Assembly (NCBI GenBank): GCA_038323195.1
Contig: JBBQGQ010000017.1
Coordinates: 5-64,004 of the forward strand
DNA length: 64,000 nucleotides
From: Acidimicrobiia bacterium
GTDB lineage: Bacteria; Actinomycetota; Acidimicrobiia; IMCC26256; PALSA-610
Direction of reading: 5' to 3'
Below, in pieces: positions 16,088-27,764 of this stretch (position 1 is the stretch's first letter; each line of letters begins with the position of its first letter). The notes below the pieces were generated by a model that saw nothing but the letters and a program-made list of their open reading frames with translations, was not told where the DNA came from and ran no database searches. The position numbers and the translations under genes were made by a program.

Positions 16088-16681
16088 GTGCCGGCCCGCA
16101 TTGCCCAGACGTCCGACGCCGACGCGATGACGGAGACGATCGCGACCGCGTTCTTCGACGATCCATTGTGGAGTTGGGCGTTCGCCGACGAGACCCGGCG
16201 CGCGGCCGATTTCCGGATCTGGTGGCGGGTCTTCGTCGACTCGTGTTTTCGCAACGAGTGGACGTGGGTGACCGACGACTGCGAGTCGGTGGCGATGTGG
16301 GCACCACCCGGCGCCGAGGAGCTGACCACCGCCGAGGAATCGAAGCTGGCGCACCTCGTCGGCGACCTCATCGGTGGCGATCACGCCAACGCCGTGCTGG
16401 GGGTGCTCGCTCGATTCGAGGCCGCGCATCCACACGACGTCCCGCACTACTACCTGAGCATCGTGGCCACCCATGACGACCATCGCGGTCACGGCATCGG
16501 TGAGGCGCTCCTCGCCGAGAACCTGAAGCACGTCGATGCCCAGCACATGCCCGCGTACCTCGAGTCGAGCAACCCGCTGAATCTGAAGCGCTACATGCGG
16601 CTCGGCTTCGAGCCGACCGGCGAGATCGAAATTCCCGACGGTCGCCCGACTGTGATCACGATGTGGCGCGCCGAGCGCTGA
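16088..16681 (+). CDS. GNAT family N-acetyltransferase
   Basis: HRGHGIGEALL (acetyl-CoA loop), the size and the overall pattern fit the family. GTG start after GGAG. Confidence 0.7.
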   Translation: MPARIAQTSDADAMTETIATAFFDDPLWSWAFADETRRAADFRIWWRVFVDSCFRNEWTWVTDDCESVAMWAPPGAEELTTAEESKLAHLVGDLIGGDHANAVLGVLARFEAAHPHDVPHYYLSIVATHDDHRGHGIGEALLAENLKHVDAQHMPAYLESSNPLNLKRYMRLGFEPTGEIEIPDGRPTVITMWRAER

Positions 16682-16690
16682 CTCGAGACC

Positions 16691-18022
16691 TCAGCTCGAT
16701 TCACGGGACTGAACCCAGCGCGTGCCGTTCCACGTCGCGCGCCAGTCGGTGAACACGTTGCCGTTCCAGTAGCGCAGGGTCGTCGCGTCGCGGCGGAACC
16801 AACCGGGCGGGCTCTGCCCGGGTCGGGGGATCGTTACGGGCGTGCCGTCGGCGGACGCGTCCGACGCGAGTGCCGTGGGGGTGTTCGCCGCCAGTCCTCC
16901 GGTGAGCACCGGAGCCGCGCCGGCGCGGCGCTCCGCCGCGTGCGCGAGCTCGTCGAGGTCGACGGGTACACCGGTCGTGGTCGCGTCGACGGGGCCGCGC
17001 TCGTTCGGGTCGAGGCCCTCGAGCTTGCGCAGGATCGCGATGCGCTCGTCGAGCGGCGGGTGCGAGTCGAACATCTTGTTGAGCTTGGCGTGACGATCGT
17101 CGCCCTGATTGCGAAGCGGTGTCACGAGCCAGAGGTGCGCAGTTGCACGCGATACGTGGTGCACGACGGTGTGGTCGGCTTCCAGCTTCTCGAGCGCCTT
17201 GCGGATGCCGTCGGGCGAGACGAGCTCGGCCGCGCTGACGTCGGCGAGCTCCTCGCGGTGACGCGAGATCGCGAGCGAGAGAAGACGGGCGCCGAACGCG
17301 AGCACTCCGGCGAGCGCGGCGATGCCGATGAGCACGATCGCGCCGTTGTTGTTGTCGTCATCGCCCCAGTCGGCGAACCAGCTCATACGGGCCGCGATCT
17401 CGGCGACCGCGACGAGGATCCCGACCGTCGTCACCGCGAGCGTGGTCACCTGGACGTCGCGGTTGCGGACGTGCGACATCTCGTGCGCGAGCACGCCTTC
17501 GAGCTCGCGGCGCGACATGAGGTTGAGCAGACCCGTGGTGACCGCGACCCCGGAGCTCTGCGGCGACCGTCCGAACGCGAACGCGTTGGGGGCCGGATCG
17601 TCGACGATGTACACCCGCGGCTTCGGGAGCCCCGTGCGAATGCAGAGACCCTCGATGACATCGTGTAGCACCTTGGCCTGCTCCGGCGTGACCTCGACCG
17701 CGTGCGTCAGCGCGATGGTCGCGCGCACCGCGAGCATCCAACCGACCACGTCGACCACGATTGCAACCGCGGCGCCGACGAGGATCCCGGTCGGGACCGA
17801 GCGGGTGAGGAGGATGCCGATCGCGGCCCCGAGGATCCCGACCAGCACGAACTCGATCGCGAGCATGAGCAACGAGGTACGCCGGTTCTTGGCTATCAGC
17901 TCGACGTGGGTAACGGGTCCGGTTGTGTTCACGAGGCAACCATCGTCGCGCGGATGGGAACCCCGCTCGGTCCATGGGGCGGTCGCAGTGGTCGTCGTCG
18001 ACGTGGACCATCCCGACCGCAC
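16691..18022 (-). CDS. htpX: M48 zinc metalloprotease HtpX with a C-terminal extension
   Basis: HEMSHVRNRD (HExxH), four TM segments and a distal ELADVSAAEL motif. About 130 extra C-terminal residues end in GWFRRDATTLRYWNGNVFTDW, which is DUF2510-like. The true start is possibly GTG at about 17932. Confidence 0.85.
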   Translation of the reverse strand: MRSGWSTSTTTTATAPWTERGSHPRDDGCLVNTTGPVTHVELIAKNRRTSLLMLAIEFVLVGILGAAIGILLTRSVPTGILVGAAVAIVVDVVGWMLAVRATIALTHAVEVTPEQAKVLHDVIEGLCIRTGLPKPRVYIVDDPAPNAFAFGRSPQSSGVAVTTGLLNLMSRRELEGVLAHEMSHVRNRDVQVTTLAVTTVGILVAVAEIAARMSWFADWGDDDNNNGAIVLIGIAALAGVLAFGARLLSLAISRHREELADVSAAELVSPDGIRKALEKLEADHTVVHHVSRATAHLWLVTPLRNQGDDRHAKLNKMFDSHPPLDERIAILRKLEGLDPNERGPVDATTTGVPVDLDELAHAAERRAGAAPVLTGGLAANTPTALASDASADGTPVTIPRPGQSPPGWFRRDATTLRYWNGNVFTDWRATWNGTRWVQSRESS

Positions 18023-18106: not shown

Positions 18107-18643
18107 GTGAGCCTCGGTTCGGACATTGGTCGATCACTTGCCGGGCCCTATCTCGCCGCGTGCGCGTTGCTCTTGGTCGCGGGCGTGGGAAAAGTCCTCC
18201 GCCCCGCGCCGGCGCGGGCCGCGGTCAGTGCCGCGGGGCTGCGCCTTCCGCGTTCCGGAGTCGTCGCGTTCGGGCTCGTCGAGCTCGCGGCGGGGGGCGC
18301 GGGAGCCCTGCTCGGCGGCCGCGTCGCGTTCGCGGTTGCGGCGTGTTACCTCCTCTTGGGCGCATTCGCCGTCCGCCTTCTCGTTCGTGCGCCGACGGCA
18401 CCGTGCGCGTGTCTGGGCTCTACGAACGCGGTCGTGACCCGCACCCACGTCGTGATCGACGTCGCCGCGGCGTGCGTCGCGATCGGCGCGGCGTCGGGCG
18501 GTTCGCCGTTCGCGCCGATCGCCGGGCGTTGGCTCGCCGGCGCAGTGTTCATGGTGCTCGTGGCGTGTTGCGTGAAGCTCACGGCGCTCGCGCTCGAAGA
18601 GCTACCCCAACTCGCGACGGCCGCCGAGGAGGCAGCGCCATGA
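18107..18643 (+). CDS. MauE/DoxX-type redox-associated membrane protein
   Basis: GTG at 18107, 5 nt after GGAGG. Four predicted TM helices and a PCACLGS (C-x-C-x-G) motif. It lies in the frame of ORF 17702..18643. Confidence 0.65.
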   Translation: MSLGSDIGRSLAGPYLAACALLLVAGVGKVLRPAPARAAVSAAGLRLPRSGVVAFGLVELAAGGAGALLGGRVAFAVAACYLLLGAFAVRLLVRAPTAPCACLGSTNAVVTRTHVVIDVAAACVAIGAASGGSPFAPIAGRWLAGAVFMVLVACCVKLTALALEELPQLATAAEEAAP

Positions 18644-19383
18644 CCAATGTGATCCTGGCGGTCGAGACGGTTGCGCTCGTCCTGCTCACGCTGCTCGTCG
18701 CCGGTCTGCTGCGCAGCCACGCCGAGATCCTCCGCCGACTGCACGCGCTCGGCGCCGGGCTCGACCCCGACGCCCGGGATGCGGGGCCGGCGCCCGCGAC
18801 CGCGCGCCCCGAAGGTCTGCGATCCGGCGGAACCGAAGCCTTCGCCGAAGCTTCCGATCTCGACGGCGCGGGATTGCACGACGACGCGATGCACGTGTCG
18901 GTCGTCGGAGCCCGTCGGCGCACGCTGCTCGCCTTCTTGTCGAGCGGATGTTCCACCTGCCAGCGCTTCTGGGAGGCGTTCGCCGACCCGCTCGGGCTCG
19001 GTCTCTCGGACGCCACCCGGCTCGTCGTCGTGACCAAGGACGGTCGGGAGGAGAGCATCTCGGCGCTGCGAAGGCTGGCGCCTCCCGACGTGCCGGTCGT
19101 GATGTCGAGCGCGGCGTGGACCGACTACCGCGTTCCGGGTTCGCCGTATTTCGTGCTCGTCGACGGGCCCGACGGTCGCGTGCAGGGCGAGGGAACCGGC
19201 GCGAACTGGGCTCAGGTGAAGAATCTCCTGCGCCAGGCGGCCGACGACGCGATGGACGTGGGCGGCGGCGGCGCCGGGCGCGAGGTGCGCATCGACCGTG
19301 AGCTCCTCGCGCACGGTGTCGCACCGGGAGATCCGAGCCTGTACCGCACGGCCGCGCAGATCGCCGGGGAATCGCGCGCGTGA
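18640..19383 (+). CDS. Membrane-anchored thioredoxin-fold protein (MauD/TlpA-like), CSTC active site
   Basis: ATGA overlap at 18640. N-terminal TM helix VILAVETVALVLLTLLVAGLL, then LLAFLSSGCSTCQRFW and VPGSPYFVLVD. Confidence 0.7.
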   Translation: MTNVILAVETVALVLLTLLVAGLLRSHAEILRRLHALGAGLDPDARDAGPAPATARPEGLRSGGTEAFAEASDLDGAGLHDDAMHVSVVGARRRTLLAFLSSGCSTCQRFWEAFADPLGLGLSDATRLVVVTKDGREESISALRRLAPPDVPVVMSSAAWTDYRVPGSPYFVLVDGPDGRVQGEGTGANWAQVKNLLRQAADDAMDVGGGGAGREVRIDRELLAHGVAPGDPSLYRTAAQIAGESRA

Positions 19384-19463
19384 ACCCCGCAGTTGTCGTC
19401 GTCGGGTGCGTGCTCGCCGCGCTGGCCGCGGTTCGCAGCGCCTGGTCACCCTGAGGAGAGTCG

Positions 19464-20057
19464 ATGCTCGCGAGCATCAATCCGCTCGGGGAGCGGGCCC
19501 GCAACCAGCGCTATACGACGACCGTCGCGGCCTACATCGTCGGCTCGACGGTCGCGGGCGCGATCCTTGGTGGCGTCCTCGGGTTCGTCGGCGCGCCCGT
19601 CGCGGGTCCGGAGGTCGCGCTCACCGCCGTCGCGCTGCTGGCCGCGGCGGGGATCCTGTTCGACGGTCGCCGGTTGGGAACGCGCGTGCCCGGGCCCCGG
19701 CGCCAGGTCGATGAGAACTGGCTCGTCACGTATCGCGGGTGGGTGTACGGCGCAGGGTTCGGTGTGCAGGTCGGGCTCGCGCTCGTGACCATCGTGACCG
19801 CGTCGGCAACGTGGGTCGCGTTCGGGTGCGCGCTGTTCTGCGCGAGCGCGCCTGCCGGTGCAGTGATCGGCGCGACTTTCGGACTTTCCCGCGCGCTCCC
19901 GATCCTTGCCGCCGCGCGCGTACGAGATCCGTCGAACCTGCGGCGGCTCGTACGCCGGCTGGAAGGGATGCGGCCGCGCGTCGCCGTCACGACGACGGCG
20001 GTCCAGGGAGCGGCCGCCGTCGGTCTGGTCGCGCTCGCGGTCGCGAAGGCGGCATGA
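19464..20057 (+). CDS. Integral membrane protein (about 5 TM), family not recognised
   Basis: 197-aa ORF with a GAGGAG SD upstream. Its hydrophobic segments alternate with basic loops. Confidence 0.65.
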   Translation: MLASINPLGERARNQRYTTTVAAYIVGSTVAGAILGGVLGFVGAPVAGPEVALTAVALLAAAGILFDGRRLGTRVPGPRRQVDENWLVTYRGWVYGAGFGVQVGLALVTIVTASATWVAFGCALFCASAPAGAVIGATFGLSRALPILAAARVRDPSNLRRLVRRLEGMRPRVAVTTTAVQGAAAVGLVALAVAKAA

Positions 20058-20506
20058 GAACACTCGCCGCGCACGGTCTTGCGCTCGCGTTGCCGTCCGG
20101 CTGGGAGGGGCGAATCCACCGCCGGACCGCCGCGGTGGCGGCCGAGCGGACCCATGCGGTGGTGCACCTCGCGAACTTCGCGTTGCCGGAACAGCGCGAC
20201 GACTTCGGTGGGAGTGTCACGCCCGCGATGCGGTCGCCCGACGTCTTCGTCACGTTGTTCGAGTACGGGGCCGGTTCACTCGGAACGCCGCTGTTCGCGC
20301 GCCAGGGTGTGCCGAGGGTCAGCGCCGACCTGTTCGGCTCGAAGCGCCTGCAACGGCCGCTTCCGGGCCAGCTCGGCTGCCAGCAGTTCTTCACGGCCAA
20401 CGGCCGGCCGTTCTGTCTCTACGTGGTCGCGGGGAGTCGCGCCCACCTGCCCGGCATCATCGCCGAGGTCAACGCGGTGCTCGCCGACCTTCGGGTACAG
20501 CCGTGA
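20054..20506 (+). CDS. Hypothetical soluble protein (150 aa), family not recognised
   Basis: ATGA overlap at 20054. It lies in the frame of ORF 19739..20506 (MRTLAAHGLALALPSGWEGR...). Coding-like composition and coupling on both sides. Confidence 0.55.
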   Translation: MRTLAAHGLALALPSGWEGRIHRRTAAVAAERTHAVVHLANFALPEQRDDFGGSVTPAMRSPDVFVTLFEYGAGSLGTPLFARQGVPRVSADLFGSKRLQRPLPGQLGCQQFFTANGRPFCLYVVAGSRAHLPGIIAEVNAVLADLRVQP

Positions 20507-20508
20507 CA

Positions 20509-21882
20509 ATGACCGAGCCGCGAGCGCGTCTCGGCGACCGCGTCGTCGCAGGTCTGACGAAGCGCATCGGTCGTGGCGTCACGCGGCGCGGCTTCCTGGT
20601 CCGCACCGCCGTCTTCGGCTCTGCACTTGCCGTCAATCCCCTGCGATATCTGTTGCGACCGGGCTCGGCGTACGCGTCGCTGTGCGGACCCGACACGTCG
20701 TGCACGTCGGGATGGACCGCGTTCTGTTGCACCGTCAATGGCGGCGAGAACACGTGCCCACCGGGATCGGTGCCGGCGGGGTGGTGGAAGGCCGACAACT
20801 CGGCGTTCTGTCATTCGGGGCCTCGCTACTACATCGATTGCAACGCGTCCTGCGGCAGCTGTGGATGTGGCAGCAGCGGCGTGTGTGGCCCCGAGTGCGC
20901 GGGGTGCAACTGCCACTGCGCGTCGGGCACCTGCGACGAGCGGTTCACGTGCTGCAACGAGTTCCGGTACGGGCAGTGCCATCAGGATCTCGCGTGTGTC
21001 GGGCCGATCGTGTGCCGCGTGGTCACGTGCGTCGCGCCCTGGGACTTCGACGCCACGTGCACGACGACGAGTGCGACTTCGAATGCGACCGCGCTTCACG
21101 ACGCCCCGTGCCTGCACGAATTCAGCTCGTCGGTGCTCGCGTTCGGTGCGGCGGCCGACCATGGCGAGCCGGTCGGGCCCCTGCAGCAGCCGGTCGTCGG
21201 GATCGAGGCCACACGTACCGGAGGCGGCTACTGGTTGGTCGCGTCGGATGGTGGTGTGTTCTGTTTCGGTGACGCACGTTTCCTCGGCTCGATGGGCGGT
21301 CAGCGGCTGAACCGCCCGATCGTCGACATCGCGCGTACTCCGACGGGCCTCGGCTACTGGTTGGTCGCGTCGGATGGTGGTGTGTTCTGTTTCGGTGACG
21401 CGCGCTTCCTGGGCTCGATGGGTGGTGAGCGCCTGAACCGCCCGATCGTGGGGATGGCGGCCTCCGCGACGGGCCCGGGTTATTGGCTGGTCGCGTCGGA
21501 TGGTGGTGTGTTCTGTTTCGGTGACGCGCGTTTCCTGGGTTCGATGGGTGGTGAGCGCCTGAACCGCCCGATCGTGGGGATGGCCGCGTCGGCGACCGGC
21601 CGCGGTTATTGGTTGGTCGCGTCGGATGGTGGTGTGTTCTGTTTCGGCGACGCGCGCTTCGCGGGCTCGACGGTCGACATCGCGCTCAACCGGCCGATCG
21701 TCGGAATCGCCGCCACCCCGAGCGGCGCAGGATATTGGTTCCTCGCCGCCGACGGCGGGATCTCGGCCTTCGGCGACGCGCGCTACATGGGCAGCGCGAA
21801 CAACCGAGTCCACGCCGGCGATGCCACCGATATCGCCGGGCGGACGGATGGTCGCGGCTACTGGATCGCGACCGATACCTAG
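20509..21882 (+). CDS. Tat-signal protein: 24-Cys MauA-like domain fused to a six-blade 42-residue-repeat propeller
   Basis: Lies in the frame of ORF 19906..21882. The start is ATG 20509, or GTG 20503 which overlaps the upstream TGA. Twin-arginine motif TRRGFLVRTAVFGSALA. The Cys-rich domain spans residues 59-201 and includes CC..NGG...CPPG. It is followed by repeats P.VG.A....G.GYWLVASDGGVF.FGDA.F.GS. Confidence 0.8.
   Translation: MTEPRARLGDRVVAGLTKRIGRGVTRRGFLVRTAVFGSALAVNPLRYLLRPGSAYASLCGPDTSCTSGWTAFCCTVNGGENTCPPGSVPAGWWKADNSAFCHSGPRYYIDCNASCGSCGCGSSGVCGPECAGCNCHCASGTCDERFTCCNEFRYGQCHQDLACVGPIVCRVVTCVAPWDFDATCTTTSATSNATALHDAPCLHEFSSSVLAFGAAADHGEPVGPLQQPVVGIEATRTGGGYWLVASDGGVFCFGDARFLGSMGGQRLNRPIVDIARTPTGLGYWLVASDGGVFCFGDARFLGSMGGERLNRPIVGMAASATGPGYWLVASDGGVFCFGDARFLGSMGGERLNRPIVGMAASATGRGYWLVASDGGVFCFGDARFAGSTVDIALNRPIVGIAATPSGAGYWFLAADGGISAFGDARYMGSANNRVHAGDATDIAGRTDGRGYWIATDT
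21190..21879 (+). repeat. In-frame 126-bp tandem repeats: four near-identical, then one degenerate and one partial
   Basis: The core tactggttggtcgcgtcggatggtggtgtgttctgtttcggtgacgc recurs at 21226, 21352, 21478 and 21604 with only a few substitutions. Confidence 0.9.
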
Positions 21883-24907: not shown

Positions 24908-25290
24908 GGGAGACCCCCGTTTGCGCGACCGGACGGCCGCGGTGAGGTCATTCTGACCCGTGGCGACGGCGGAAACGTCGACCTCGCGACAGATGCCGCC
25001 GCTCAGGCGACAAAGCGCCACCCCACAACGCGGGCCTAAGGGTGAGACGGCAGCGTCCTCCGTAAGGCTCGCGTCTCGTCGCGACCTCAAGAGGCTGTTC
25101 AGCAGGCCTCAGCTCGGGGCTTGATGGTGAGCCCAAATCTGCCGATCGGTACTCGCCGCTGATGCGCAAAACCGAGCAGAACGGGCGCACATAACGCGAC
25201 CGTTGTGGCTGGGCACCGAACCGTGTCCGGGAAGTACGCAAACGTTGCCTGACCGGGCACTTGCTCTGATTCCGTGGGCTCTCGTTCCCT

Positions 25291-25342
<52 letters not shown>

Positions 25343-25397
25343 ACGGCCCACGCGCCCGACCCGCGGATCGGCTGATCGTCCTCACCCGCGTCCTCGC

Positions 25398-25403
25398 TAG
25401 GGT
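25398..25403 (+). promoter_or_regulatory. -10-like TAGGGT box 6 nt upstream of ATG 25410 (candidate leaderless promoter)
   Basis: Reads TAGGGT-cggagc-ATG. The GGAG is too close to the ATG to work as an SD. Confidence 0.3.
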
Positions 25404-25409
25404 CGGAGC

Positions 25410-27764
25410 ATGCCCGGATCGATTCTCGGAACCGCCGTTCGGCGCGTCGAGGACCCCGACCTGCTGCTCGGTCGCGCGCAGTTCGTCGACGACTTGCCGA
25501 TCGACGGTTTGCTGCACCTCCACTTCGTACGTTCGTCGTACGCGCACGCGCGGCTGGTGTCGATCGACGCCGACGCCGCCCGCGCGATGCCCGGCGTCGT
25601 CGCCGTCTTTGCGGCCGGTGATCTCGGATTGCCGCCGTACGAAGGCTTGATGCAGCTGAACGCGGCGTGCGTCCGCCCTCCACTCGCCGAGGCGAAGGTG
25701 CGGTTCGTGGGCGACGCGGTCGCCGTTGTCGTGGCCGAGACGCGCGCCGCGGCGGCAGACGCGGCCGAAGCGGTGATCGTCGAGTACGACGCGCTGCCCG
25801 CCGTCGCCGATCCCGAGGCGGCCCTCGCGCCGGACGCCCCCTTGCAATTCGAGGAGCTCGGTTCGAATCTCGCGGCCGCGATCGGGCCGCGCAATCGCGG
25901 CGACGTGCTCGAAGGTGCCGACGTGGTCGTGAGGGCGCGCATCGAGAACCAGCGCATCGCGGTCATGCCGATGGAAGGCAGCGCGATCGCGGTCGTCCCG
26001 GGACCGGACGGCGCCGGACACGAGCTCACCGTGTACGTCTCGACCCAGATGCCGCACGGGTTCGCCACGCGCGTCGCGCCGATGTTCGACCTCGATGCCG
26101 CGAAGGTACGCGTGGTGGCGCCGCACGTCGGCGGCGCGTTCGGCGGCAAGCCCGGGCTCGCCGCCGAACACTGCGTCGCGGTCGCCGCCGCGCTGCGATT
26201 GCAGCGGCCGGTGAAGTGGGTCGAGACCCGCTCCGAAAATTTGATCTCGATGCCGCACGGTCGTGGGCAGGTGCAGTACGTGCAGCTCGGCTGCAAGCGC
26301 GACGGCACGATCGTGGGTATGCGATGCCAGATCGTCGCCGACTCGGGGGCGTACGCCGGCTTCGGCGGTGCGCTCGCGATGGGGCCGACCCGGATGATGG
26401 CCCAGGGCGTGTATCGCATCCCCAAGATCTCGTACGAGTGCGCCGTCGCGCTGACCAACACCACACCGATGGGTGCCTTCCGCGGCGCGGGCCGGCCCGA
26501 GGCCGCCGCCATGCTCGAACGGATCATCGACATCGCCGCGGCCGAGCTCGGCATCGATCCGGCGGAGATTCGTCGCCGCAACTTCCTTCGGCCCGACGAG
26601 TTCCCCTACACCACGGTCATGCGCACCGAGTACGACAGCGGCGACTACGACGGCGCGCTCACCGAGGCGCTGCGCGTCGCGGGCTACGACGAGTTGCGGC
26701 GCGAGCAGGCCGAGAGACGAGCCCGCGGCGACCGGGTCGTGCTCGGGATCGGAGTGAGCGCGTACGTCGAGATCACGGCGGGCGGAGGAGGATCGGAGTA
26801 CGGATCGGTGACGGTCGACGCGGAGGGAATTGCGACGATCCGCGTCGGCACGTCCGCGCACGGCCAGGGTCACGCGACCTCGTTCGCGATGATCGTCGCC
26901 GATCGGTTGCAGATCCCGCTCGAGAGCGTGCGCTTCGTGCAGTCGGACACCGCCGAGGTTCCGACCGGCGGCGGCACCGGCGGATCGCGTTCGCTGCAGC
27001 TCGGCGGTTCGGCGGTGCTGAACGCGGCCGACGCGGTGGTCGCGCAAGCCCGAGAGGTCGCGGCGACGATGCTCGAGGCCAATCCCGACGACATCGTCGT
27101 GATGGACGGCGGCGTCGGCGTGGCCGGAGTGCCCGCGAGCGCGCTCACATGGTCGCAGCTCGCCCAGCGCGAACCGATCCACGCCGTCTCCGACTTCGAG
27201 CAGGCGGGCGCGACGTTCCCGTTCGGTGCCCACGTCGCGGTCGTCGAGGTCGATCTCGACACTGGTTTGGTCACGCCGGTCCGCCATGTCGCGGTCGACG
27301 ACTGCGGGCGCATCCTCAACCCGCTGATCGTCACCGGTCAGCAGCACGGCGGCATCGCGCAAGGGATCGCGCAGGCGTTGTGGGAGCAGTACGTGTACGA
27401 CGACGACGGCAACCCCCTCACCTCGACGCTCACCGACTACGCGATGCCGAGCGCCGCCGAGCTGCCCTCGTTCGAGGCCTCGAACACCGAGACGCCCTCG
27501 CCCCGTAACGCGCTCGGCGCCAAGGGGATCGGCGAGTCGGGGACGATCGGATCGACACCGGCGGTGCAGAGCGCGGTGGTCGACGCGCTGGGCCATCTCG
27601 GGGTCCGCCATATCGACATCCCGTGCACGGCGGAGCGCGTCTGGGCTGCAGTGCGCGATGCGGAAGCGGGGCGACTCGCATCGCCCTGGCGCGATCCGCC
27701 GGCCGTCTTCGACTCGCTCACGGCTCCCAAGACCCGTGCCGATGCCGAAGCCGTCGACATCTGA
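25410..27764 (+). CDS. Xanthine dehydrogenase/CoxL-family molybdopterin-binding large subunit (not form-I CO dehydrogenase)
   Basis: 784 aa. N-terminus ILGTAVRRVEDPDLLLGRAQFVDD, active-site loop PMGAFRGAGRPEA, and C-terminal GAKGIGESGTIGSTPAV. Confidence 0.88.
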   Translation: MPGSILGTAVRRVEDPDLLLGRAQFVDDLPIDGLLHLHFVRSSYAHARLVSIDADAARAMPGVVAVFAAGDLGLPPYEGLMQLNAACVRPPLAEAKVRFVGDAVAVVVAETRAAAADAAEAVIVEYDALPAVADPEAALAPDAPLQFEELGSNLAAAIGPRNRGDVLEGADVVVRARIENQRIAVMPMEGSAIAVVPGPDGAGHELTVYVSTQMPHGFATRVAPMFDLDAAKVRVVAPHVGGAFGGKPGLAAEHCVAVAAALRLQRPVKWVETRSENLISMPHGRGQVQYVQLGCKRDGTIVGMRCQIVADSGAYAGFGGALAMGPTRMMAQGVYRIPKISYECAVALTNTTPMGAFRGAGRPEAAAMLERIIDIAAAELGIDPAEIRRRNFLRPDEFPYTTVMRTEYDSGDYDGALTEALRVAGYDELRREQAERRARGDRVVLGIGVSAYVEITAGGGGSEYGSVTVDAEGIATIRVGTSAHGQGHATSFAMIVADRLQIPLESVRFVQSDTAEVPTGGGTGGSRSLQLGGSAVLNAADAVVAQAREVAATMLEANPDDIVVMDGGVGVAGVPASALTWSQLAQREPIHAVSDFEQAGATFPFGAHVAVVEVDLDTGLVTPVRHVAVDDCGRILNPLIVTGQQHGGIAQGIAQALWEQYVYDDDGNPLTSTLTDYAMPSAAELPSFEASNTETPSPRNALGAKGIGESGTIGSTPAVQSAVVDALGHLGVRHIDIPCTAERVWAAVRDAEAGRLASPWRDPPAVFDSLTAPKTRADAEAVDI

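Follow-up and report, generated by a model that had tools for sequence, protein, structure and literature searches.

Among described systems, the closest to the one reported here is the methylamine dehydrogenase (MADH) gene cluster mauFBEDACJG of Methylobacterium and Paracoccus, in which mauE and mauD lie directly upstream of mauA and are needed for MauA maturation. MauA, the MADH light chain, is exported by the twin-arginine translocation (Tat) pathway, knotted by disulfides, and bears the cofactor tryptophan tryptophylquinone (TTQ); the heavy chain MauB is a seven-blade propeller. Parts of this machinery also occur elsewhere. In Streptomyces, mauE with or without mauD is found beside Cys-rich genes in candidate clusters for peptides made on the ribosome and modified after translation (RiPPs), where the genome has no further mau genes (Kloosterman et al. 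2020, PMC7794033). MauE also complements DsbB, and many species have MauE without MauA (bioRxiv 10.64898/2026.03.05.709764). In a 64-kb stretch of DNA from an Acidimicrobiia bacterium (hereafter the window), we found a five-gene operon on the plus strand (18107–21882) that encodes homologues of all three membrane-associated accessory proteins of the mau cluster, adjoining, as in that cluster, a gene for a Cys-rich protein with a Tat signal. The operon probably represents a mau-type system dedicated to the maturation of a new Tat-signal disulfide-knot protein (the cargo), together with this substrate. An original prediction made from the sequence alone had offered a new class of disulfide-knotted secreted proteins with dedicated oxidoreductases as its second reading, and it is this reading that the evidence favours.

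The operon region has a G+C background of 68–72% and holds five open reading frames (ORFs). A GGAGG sequence sits 4 nt 5' of the GTG start of gene 1 (18107), and the following genes overlap by 4 nt at 18640 (ATGA), 20054 (ATGA), and 20503 (GTGA), in agreement with the five coupled same-strand genes described previously. The region 19384–19463, in contrast, had been regarded as the only gap, carrying a GAGGAG Shine-Dalgarno sequence, but is the 5' coding part of gene 3. The GTG start of this gene at 19380 shares a GTGA overlap with the stop codon of gene 2, and 4-nt overlaps thus join all five genes.

The original prediction had hinged on conservation of this neighbourhood across Actinomycetota. 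We fetched approximately 80 loci from different species (about 84 with the Cys-rich domain of the cargo), and linkage of cargo and accessory genes was conserved in this sample. Loci with the Cys-rich domain also contained genes for MauE (n = 76), the MauD-like protein (n = 81), the gene 4 product (n = 79), and the MauF-like protein (n = 57). Accessory and cargo genes shared one strand but were arranged in several orders, and every fetched cassette contained the cargo gene. This recurrence of the gene set exceeds chance. A scan of species-representative genomes identified the Cys-rich domain in at least 542 species genomes, including cultured Kineococcus.

Gene 1 (18107–18643, plus strand, 178 aa) is, judging from its sequence, a true MauE, a membrane thiol oxidase family for which DsbB-like activity is predicted. 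The PCACLGS motif, which had been associated with MauE-type proteins beforehand, is present, and the product scores 31.8 bits against Pfam PF07291 (MauE; gathering cutoff 27), matching profile positions 10–124 of 128. MauE proteins able to take over from DsbB in E. coli are reported to have a CXC motif, a lysine in transmembrane helix (TM) 1, and a glutamate in TM2 (bioRxiv 10.64898/2026.03.05.709764). Gene 1 has the same CXC-hydrophobic-Gly signature (C100-A-C102 within PCACLG), TM1 lysine (K29), and TM2 glutamate (E59) as the generalist MauE of Gonzalez et al. (bioRxiv 10.64898/2026.03.05.709764), but reads CAC-LG where CGC-FG is common. In the gene 1 family, the lysine, the glutamate, and the CXC motif are kept in 76 of 79 members, and CGCFG is found in 56 of 79.

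Given the occurrence of MauE in species without MauA, the accessory genes could also be the general disulfide system of the cell, with MauE as a DsbB substitute, placed beside one of many substrates. Actinomycetota do secrete many disulfide-bonded proteins, which would suit such an arrangement. This is nonetheless rather unlikely, as the cargo gene is translationally coupled to the accessory genes and never missing from the fetched cassettes, the MauF-like gene and gene 4 accompany it through different gene orders, and the N-region of its leader is common to MauA, the other known client of MauF, MauE, and MauD. Unlike the generalist MauE, the gene 1 product is encoded in a fixed cassette with a MauD-like protein, a MauF-like protein, the gene 4 product, and one substrate, an arrangement that suggests a dedicated function more than a general one.

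Gene 2 (18640–19383, plus strand, 247 aa) encodes a thioredoxin fold with a CSTC site and an N-terminal TM anchor, GLLRSHAEILRRLH, and had accordingly been described as a TM-anchored, MauD-like thioredoxin. The anchor motif is unusual and resembles that of MauD (GLLRQVGLLHER), and the CxTC site is conserved in the gene 2 family. The sole NCBIfam match is MauD (TIGR02661; 21.9 bits, E 1e-4), far from the equivalog cutoff of 188.6 bits, whereas a genuine MauD scores 372.9. The gene 2 family profile matches the genuine MauD proteins of two true mau clusters (L006 and L007, see below) at 5e-27 and 1e-25. By these profile scores, the protein is MauD-like and not a MauD equivalog. The family also has a conserved C-terminal tail beyond the thioredoxin fold (L222, G226, P229, G230, and L234; ELLAHGVAPGDPSLY), which by eye is not found in genuine MauD.

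Gene 3 had been left unassigned as a protein of 197 aa with five TM helices. Re-annotated from 19380 to 20057 on the plus strand, it is a homologue of MauF of approximately 225 aa with about six predicted TM helices. True mau clusters of Methylobacterium (L006) and of L007 were fetched via their MauA genes, show the expected order F-B-E-D-A, and had their MauF assigned by position. A jackhmmer profile seeded with gene 3 retrieved the MauF of L006 at 5e-40 and its equivalent in L007 at 5e-36. In BLASTP searches against the Methylobacterium MauF, the window protein matched at 5e-4 over 172 residues, and a longer relative from locus L003 at 8e-11, with the common motif STWSPCG; the E-values of both methods refer to small search spaces. 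Pfam and NCBIfam models yielded no match for true MauF or for full-length gene 3 with selenocysteine (Sec, U) replaced by cysteine. One long form weakly matched TauE/SafE (E 0.089), which hints at the LysE/DsbD-type transporter clan but was not counted as evidence.

The additional N-terminal part of gene 3 emerges when the frame is read through an in-frame TGA at 19452–19454. Upstream of the ATG 19464 ORF and in frame with it, the sequence runs GTG(19380)-NPAVVVVGCVLAALAAVRSAWSP-TGA(19452)-GESMLASINPLGER, with VNPAVVVVGCVLAALAAVRSAWSP immediately before the TGA, so that the window reads RSAWSP-[TGA]-GES and the TGA takes the position of the cysteine in STWSPCG. The GAGGAG sequence lies in the codons 3' of the TGA (WSP-TGA-GESML). 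Among 57 sequences of the MauF-like family, this position is the only invariant Cys/Sec column. A further 41 distinct loci, which belong to Acidimicrobiia, Frankiales, Mycobacteriales, Kineococcus, and Nitriliruptoraceae, have an in-frame TGA following a TM helix and the motif RS.WSP, while 13 actinobacterial loci and both true MauF proteins have a cysteine there. In the Sec forms examined, the MauF-like gene sits between the MauD-like gene and gene 4. The Cys-form genes follow either gene 4 or the cargo gene (loci L003, L005, L021, L026, L031, L045, L047, L048, L050, L081, and L084), and gene order and Sec/Cys state thus seem to be linked.

The sequence following the TGA can form a hairpin, GAUGCU-NNNN-AGCAUC (19463–19478, plus strand), which starts 11 nt after the U of the UGA and is a candidate core of a selenocysteine insertion sequence (SECIS). 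Its 6-bp stem is kept in 41–42 of 42 sequences, with a possible lower stem pairing UGAG with CUCG, and none of the Cys-form MauF-like genes is able to form it. All 41 TGA-form genes use AGC for the serine encoded in the 3' arm, compared with 18.5% of 368 other serine codons in these genes, and the Cys forms use TCG, TCC, or ACN at this position. Genes of the Sec machinery adjoin the cassette in two relatives: in L004 (5653–7865), tRNA-Sec and selA are followed by MauE, and in L025 (4789–7311), a spacing of 13 nt separates gene 4 from the group selD (minus strand), tRNA-Sec, and selA that follows it. In L037, a tRNA-Sec gene (16243–16338) is located approximately 7 kb downstream. A second hairpin (CCGCUC-GGN-GAGCGG) downstream of the first was rejected, as it is broken in several loci, confounded with a conserved PLGER peptide, and dropped by RNAalifold.

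In these respects, gene 3 resembles known prokaryotic selenoproteins, in which a single Sec replaces a conserved redox cysteine, Cys orthologues exist, a hairpin lies 3' of the UGA, and Sec machinery genes are found nearby, as in the relatives of gene 3. The TGA on the invariant cysteine, its recurrence in 41 other loci, the hairpin specific to the TGA forms, and the adjoining sel genes together indicate that gene 3 probably encodes a MauF-like membrane selenoprotein (WSP-U-G) with predicted Sec incorporation at the UGA.

The alternative, assumed by every gene caller, is that TGA 19452 is an ordinary stop codon and that gene 3 starts at ATG 19464. The GAGGAG sequence, 5 nt 5' of this ATG, would then serve as the ribosome binding site. 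This start is also the one in public databases: the gene 3 family matched 1204 cluster representatives in a library of 1.84 billion proteins, and nearly all of the best 150 of these are approximately 195–205 aa long and begin at this methionine, four codons after the UGA. The hairpin itself offers the alternative some room, since it shows no covariation among the 42 sequences, has an ordinary folding energy (z 0.39), and is small compared with the SECIS of E. coli. Furthermore, Rfam and ARAGORN scans of the 64-kb window yielded nothing, neither Sec machinery nor its tRNA is present there, and we therefore infer Sec use by this organism from its relatives. We still regard an ordinary stop as very unlikely, because the upstream frame is open and encodes a TM helix and RS.WSP in the 41 other loci, and because the TGA falls exactly on the sole invariant cysteine of a family that includes true MauF. 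The shortened protein would lose its only redox residue, and neither the TGA-specific hairpin and AGC codon nor the Sec genes beside the cassettes of L004 and L025 fit an ordinary stop. It follows that nearly all of the best 150 public annotations lack both the redox residue and the TM helix at the N-terminus.

Gene 4 (20054–20506, plus strand, 150 aa) overlaps gene 3 by ATGA and encodes a protein with no evident signal peptide or TM helix. It had previously been called soluble and unassignable, and no relatives were found in Pfam, NCBIfam, or the PDB. The true mau clusters L006 and L007 also contain no homologue. From its distribution, the product is a conserved, presumably soluble protein specific to the cassette.

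Gene 5 encodes the cargo, and its leader (residues 1–58; 20503–20676, plus strand) consists of a conserved N-region, the twin-arginine motif TRRGFL, an h-region, and a presumed signal peptidase site, LRPGSAYA, which is also conserved. The twin-arginine signal recognized in the original prediction is well conserved: R28 and R29 are invariant in 61 homologues, and the gene 5 family profile matches the Tat signal of NosZ. The NCBIfam TAT model gave a score of 14.3, under its cutoff of 16.7. We compared the family with a profile of 120 true light chains, for which the Paracoccus MauA sequence was verified against chain L of 2BBK. The overall hhalign match (E 9.5e-10) is supplied by the leader, which alone scores an E of 4.4e-10. 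Within it, the 15 columns before the twin arginines score 15.7, compared with 5.5 ± 1.6 (maximum 10.1) for column shuffles, and the gene 5 leader is therefore specifically MauA-like.

The leader is followed by the Cys-rich domain (residues ~59–210; 20677–21132, plus strand), with exactly 24 cysteines between residues 61 and 203 and with invariant GWWKxD, R, D, and FRYGQ elements. Both the cysteine count and the six 42-residue repeats that follow the domain had been reported correctly. Full-length homologues of gene 5 are common in Acidimicrobiia, but the Cys-rich domain alone is far more widespread, mostly as stand-alone proteins of 200–270 aa. In an AlphaFold model of the full-length protein, the predicted local distance difference test score (pLDDT) of this domain was only 35–73 and Foldseek saw nothing but the propeller; this model was replaced by a run on the domain alignment, which reached a pLDDT of 91.1 and a predicted template modelling score (pTM) of 0.87. 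With the new model, Foldseek returned 16 hits in the PDB (best E 5.2), none of them a chain of MADH or aromatic amine dehydrogenase (AADH), although the method is weak on small, irregular disulfide-rich folds. Going by this model, the domain has a confidently predicted fold without a solved relative.

The other reading offered originally was that of a single-chain MADH-like quinoprotein, in which a light chain of the TTQ type is joined covalently to a propeller resembling the heavy chain. The homologues of MauF, MauE, and MauD and the MauA-like leader are compatible with it, as is the mature domain to a limited extent. A single-sequence search of the PDB gave AADH small subunits over residues 70–125 (E ~5–6) as the only matches other than noise, and in the ungapped phmmer alignment, W94/W95 lie 1–2 residues before the tryptophan of the AADH motif ISWIGTC. 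CPPG[TS] occurs early in the mature protein in both MauA and the cargo, and in the cargo model it is followed by a beta-hairpin starting at the invariant tryptophan pair. These three weak signals share one register for the first half of the Cys-rich domain, for which remote homology is possible.

Profile and structure comparisons nevertheless speak against a light-chain-like knot. Gene 5 has no match to PF02975 (Me-amine-dh_L) in Pfam at E ≤ 1, two family profiles of the domain gave no MADH or AADH match in the PDB at E ≤ 10, so that the AADH match of the single sequence is lost, and nothing significant was retrieved by the single-sequence search or by either profile. Mature domains aligned by hhalign (local, low-mact, and global) over only 13 columns at GG..tCPPG[TS], with an E of 0.018 and a probability of 2.6%. 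The conservation of cysteines and tryptophans, on which the original prediction had also drawn, is divided in this respect: cysteine counts are even and W94/W95 are invariant, but the third tryptophan, W180, is found in only 55 of 102 homologues, and no second, distant tryptophan is conserved. The partner genes are missing as well. phmmer searches detected no homologues of MauB, MauC (amicyanin), MauG, MauJ, MauL, or MauM in the 80 loci or among the ORFs of the window, extending the earlier observation that mauB, mauG, and amicyanin genes are not visible there, and no ORF in either set contains two or more CXXCH motifs. Together with the identity of the C-terminal domain discussed next, these results make a single-chain MADH most improbable.

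The C-terminal domain of gene 5 (21133–21882, plus strand) comprises six 42-residue GYWLVASDGGVFxFGDA repeats, with the repeat tryptophan at positions 244, 286, 328, 370, 412, and 454. AlphaFold models the region as beta strands with a pLDDT above 90, consistent with a beta-propeller, and among the best 50 Foldseek matches listed there are only generic WD40/RCC1-type propellers. The suggestion that it is a fused heavy chain does not hold up, as there is no Pfam match to PF06433 (Me-amine-dh_H), there are six repeats, and most homologues have no propeller. In other proteins, the GYWLVASDGG repeat is joined to S8 peptidase, PD40, and CAP domains. The Cys-rich domain of the homologues is followed by nothing, this propeller, LGFP, SLH, CWB2, or FG-GAP modules, or other unassigned modules. 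The propeller is present in 15 loci only, and other loci encode six or seven LGFP repeats (4.5e-132), three SLH domains (7e-30), three CWB2 domains (5e-58), or FG-GAP. LGFP, SLH, and CWB2 are wall-binding modules, and their presence in place of the propeller is an argument for a Cys-rich head acting at the envelope, with the C-terminal part as a tether or binder. From these domain matches, the propeller is predicted to be a swappable C-terminal module and not a MauB analogue or catalytic partner. In one locus with a stand-alone domain (L004, 10703–11986), a separate 427-aa protein with faint PD40/Tricorn matches follows the cassette; it was seen once and is no evidence for a heavy-chain partner.

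Because Tat substrates typically contain cofactors, the Cys-rich domain might instead bind a metal or an Fe-S cluster in the cytoplasm, hence the use of Tat, while the thiol-redox genes protect or load it. The central stretch of the domain, CGSCGCGSSGVCGPECAGCNCHC, indeed resembles metallothionein. We consider this explanation highly unlikely. Of 102 homologues, 93 have an even number of cysteines, cysteine columns are gained and lost in similar numbers, and the four central cysteine columns are each present in 66–71 of 102 sequences, which fits disulfides. In addition, the AlphaFold model is confident without ligands, the partner proteins belong to families that form or exchange disulfides, and genes for Fe-S or metal chaperones were not detected.

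In the favoured scenario of a dedicated maturation system, MauE would generate disulfides and pass the electrons to the quinone pool, as expected from its family. The MauD-like protein and the Sec-containing MauF homologue may relay or shuffle disulfides so that approximately 12 form correctly in the cargo, a role suggested by family knowledge and by the Sec/Cys pair. The gene 4 product may act as an escort that binds the leader. The cargo would end up outside the cell, with the Cys-knot head as its functional part, as the conserved WWKxD/R/FRYGQ patch suggests, and with the C-terminal module (here the six-repeat propeller, elsewhere LGFP, SLH, or CWB2) as a tether or binder. With the UGA decoded as Sec, the MauF homologue would be a membrane selenoprotein not described before. 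A more specific scenario, which we consider doubtful, is that MauF is a catalytic thiol/selenol enzyme and that the MauE/MauD/MauF trio forms the disulfide knot of the client at the membrane, ahead of its export by Tat, with the leader as a handle that is perhaps held by the gene 4 product. Formation of the knot before export would explain the use of Tat by both MauA and the new family. There is also the possibility that the invariant tryptophan pair of the knot carries a protein-derived cofactor independent of MauG.

Several observations weigh against a dedicated maturation system of this kind. MauE has been argued to be a generalist DsbB-like oxidase that is not bound to MauA (bioRxiv 10.64898/2026.03.05.709764), so that only gene linkage speaks for a dedicated role. 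By eye, the positive-inside rule places both the MauD-like domain and the Sec loop in the cytoplasm, which fits poorly with an extracytoplasmic (periplasmic) MauE oxidase. The Tat export of a protein with 12 disulfides is mechanistically unexplained. Finally, in the closest syntenic loci (L001/L002, 6271–9407), which have the same flanking genes as the window and a cargo approximately 80% identical, MauE, the MauD-like gene, gene 4, and the cargo gene are all present, but a MauF-like gene was found neither between genes 2 and 4 nor elsewhere adjoining the cargo.

Compared with the mau clusters, which are found in Pseudomonadota, the operon belongs to Actinomycetota. It lacks MauB, MauG, amicyanin, MauJ, MauL, MauM, and MauN, and has the conserved gene 4 as an addition. 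Its MauF homologue has a proposed Sec in place of cysteine and one TM helix fewer before the motif. The cargo and MauA share the leader N-region and the twin arginines in the same register, but the mature cargo has 24 cysteines instead of 12 and matches neither the profile nor the fold of the TTQ light chain. The precursors of the Streptomyces candidate RiPP clusters are short and contain at least eight cysteines, and their descriptions set them apart from the cargo, a folded, Tat-signal domain of approximately 150 residues that often precedes large wall-binding domains; neither MauF nor the gene 4 product is mentioned for these clusters (PMC7794033).

In the literature searched, we found neither the cassette of five genes nor the homology of gene 3 to MauF described, and likewise nothing on the selenocysteine of gene 3, the cargo fold, or the modular C-termini; full-text searches yielded no paper on a MauF selenoprotein. 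Neither a MauF-like nor a WSP-U-G family is listed in a recent catalogue of 119 prokaryotic selenoprotein families and subfamilies (Zhang et al. 2026, PMC13188914). If confirmed, the MauF homologue would thus found a new family of membrane selenoproteins; in Mycobacterium, the one actinobacterial genus surveyed, formate dehydrogenase was reported as the sole predicted selenoprotein (PMC13449736). The system as a whole is widespread in Actinomycetota, given the at least 542 species genomes with the Cys-rich domain, and bears on the question of how a protein with approximately 12 disulfides can be a Tat substrate. Since Sec is nearly always found at catalytic redox positions, the Sec/Cys pair points to the cysteine of the MauF SPCG motif as its active site. 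The pair therefore offers a testable handle on what MauF, MauD, and MauE contribute to production of the MADH light chain.

Two features of the flanking DNA were also recorded. Directly upstream of gene 1, a divergent gene on the minus strand (16691–18022) encodes an M48-type peptidase with a Trp-rich C-terminal tail. Its assignment is based on synteny with L001 (Pfam Peptidase_M48), and L001/L002 share its arrangement with the cassette, unlike the more distant loci L003–L005. Further downstream, at approximately 25110–25400, six or seven tandem dipeptide units (PR, AP, or AR, depending on the frame) lie upstream of a large gene at 25410–27764.

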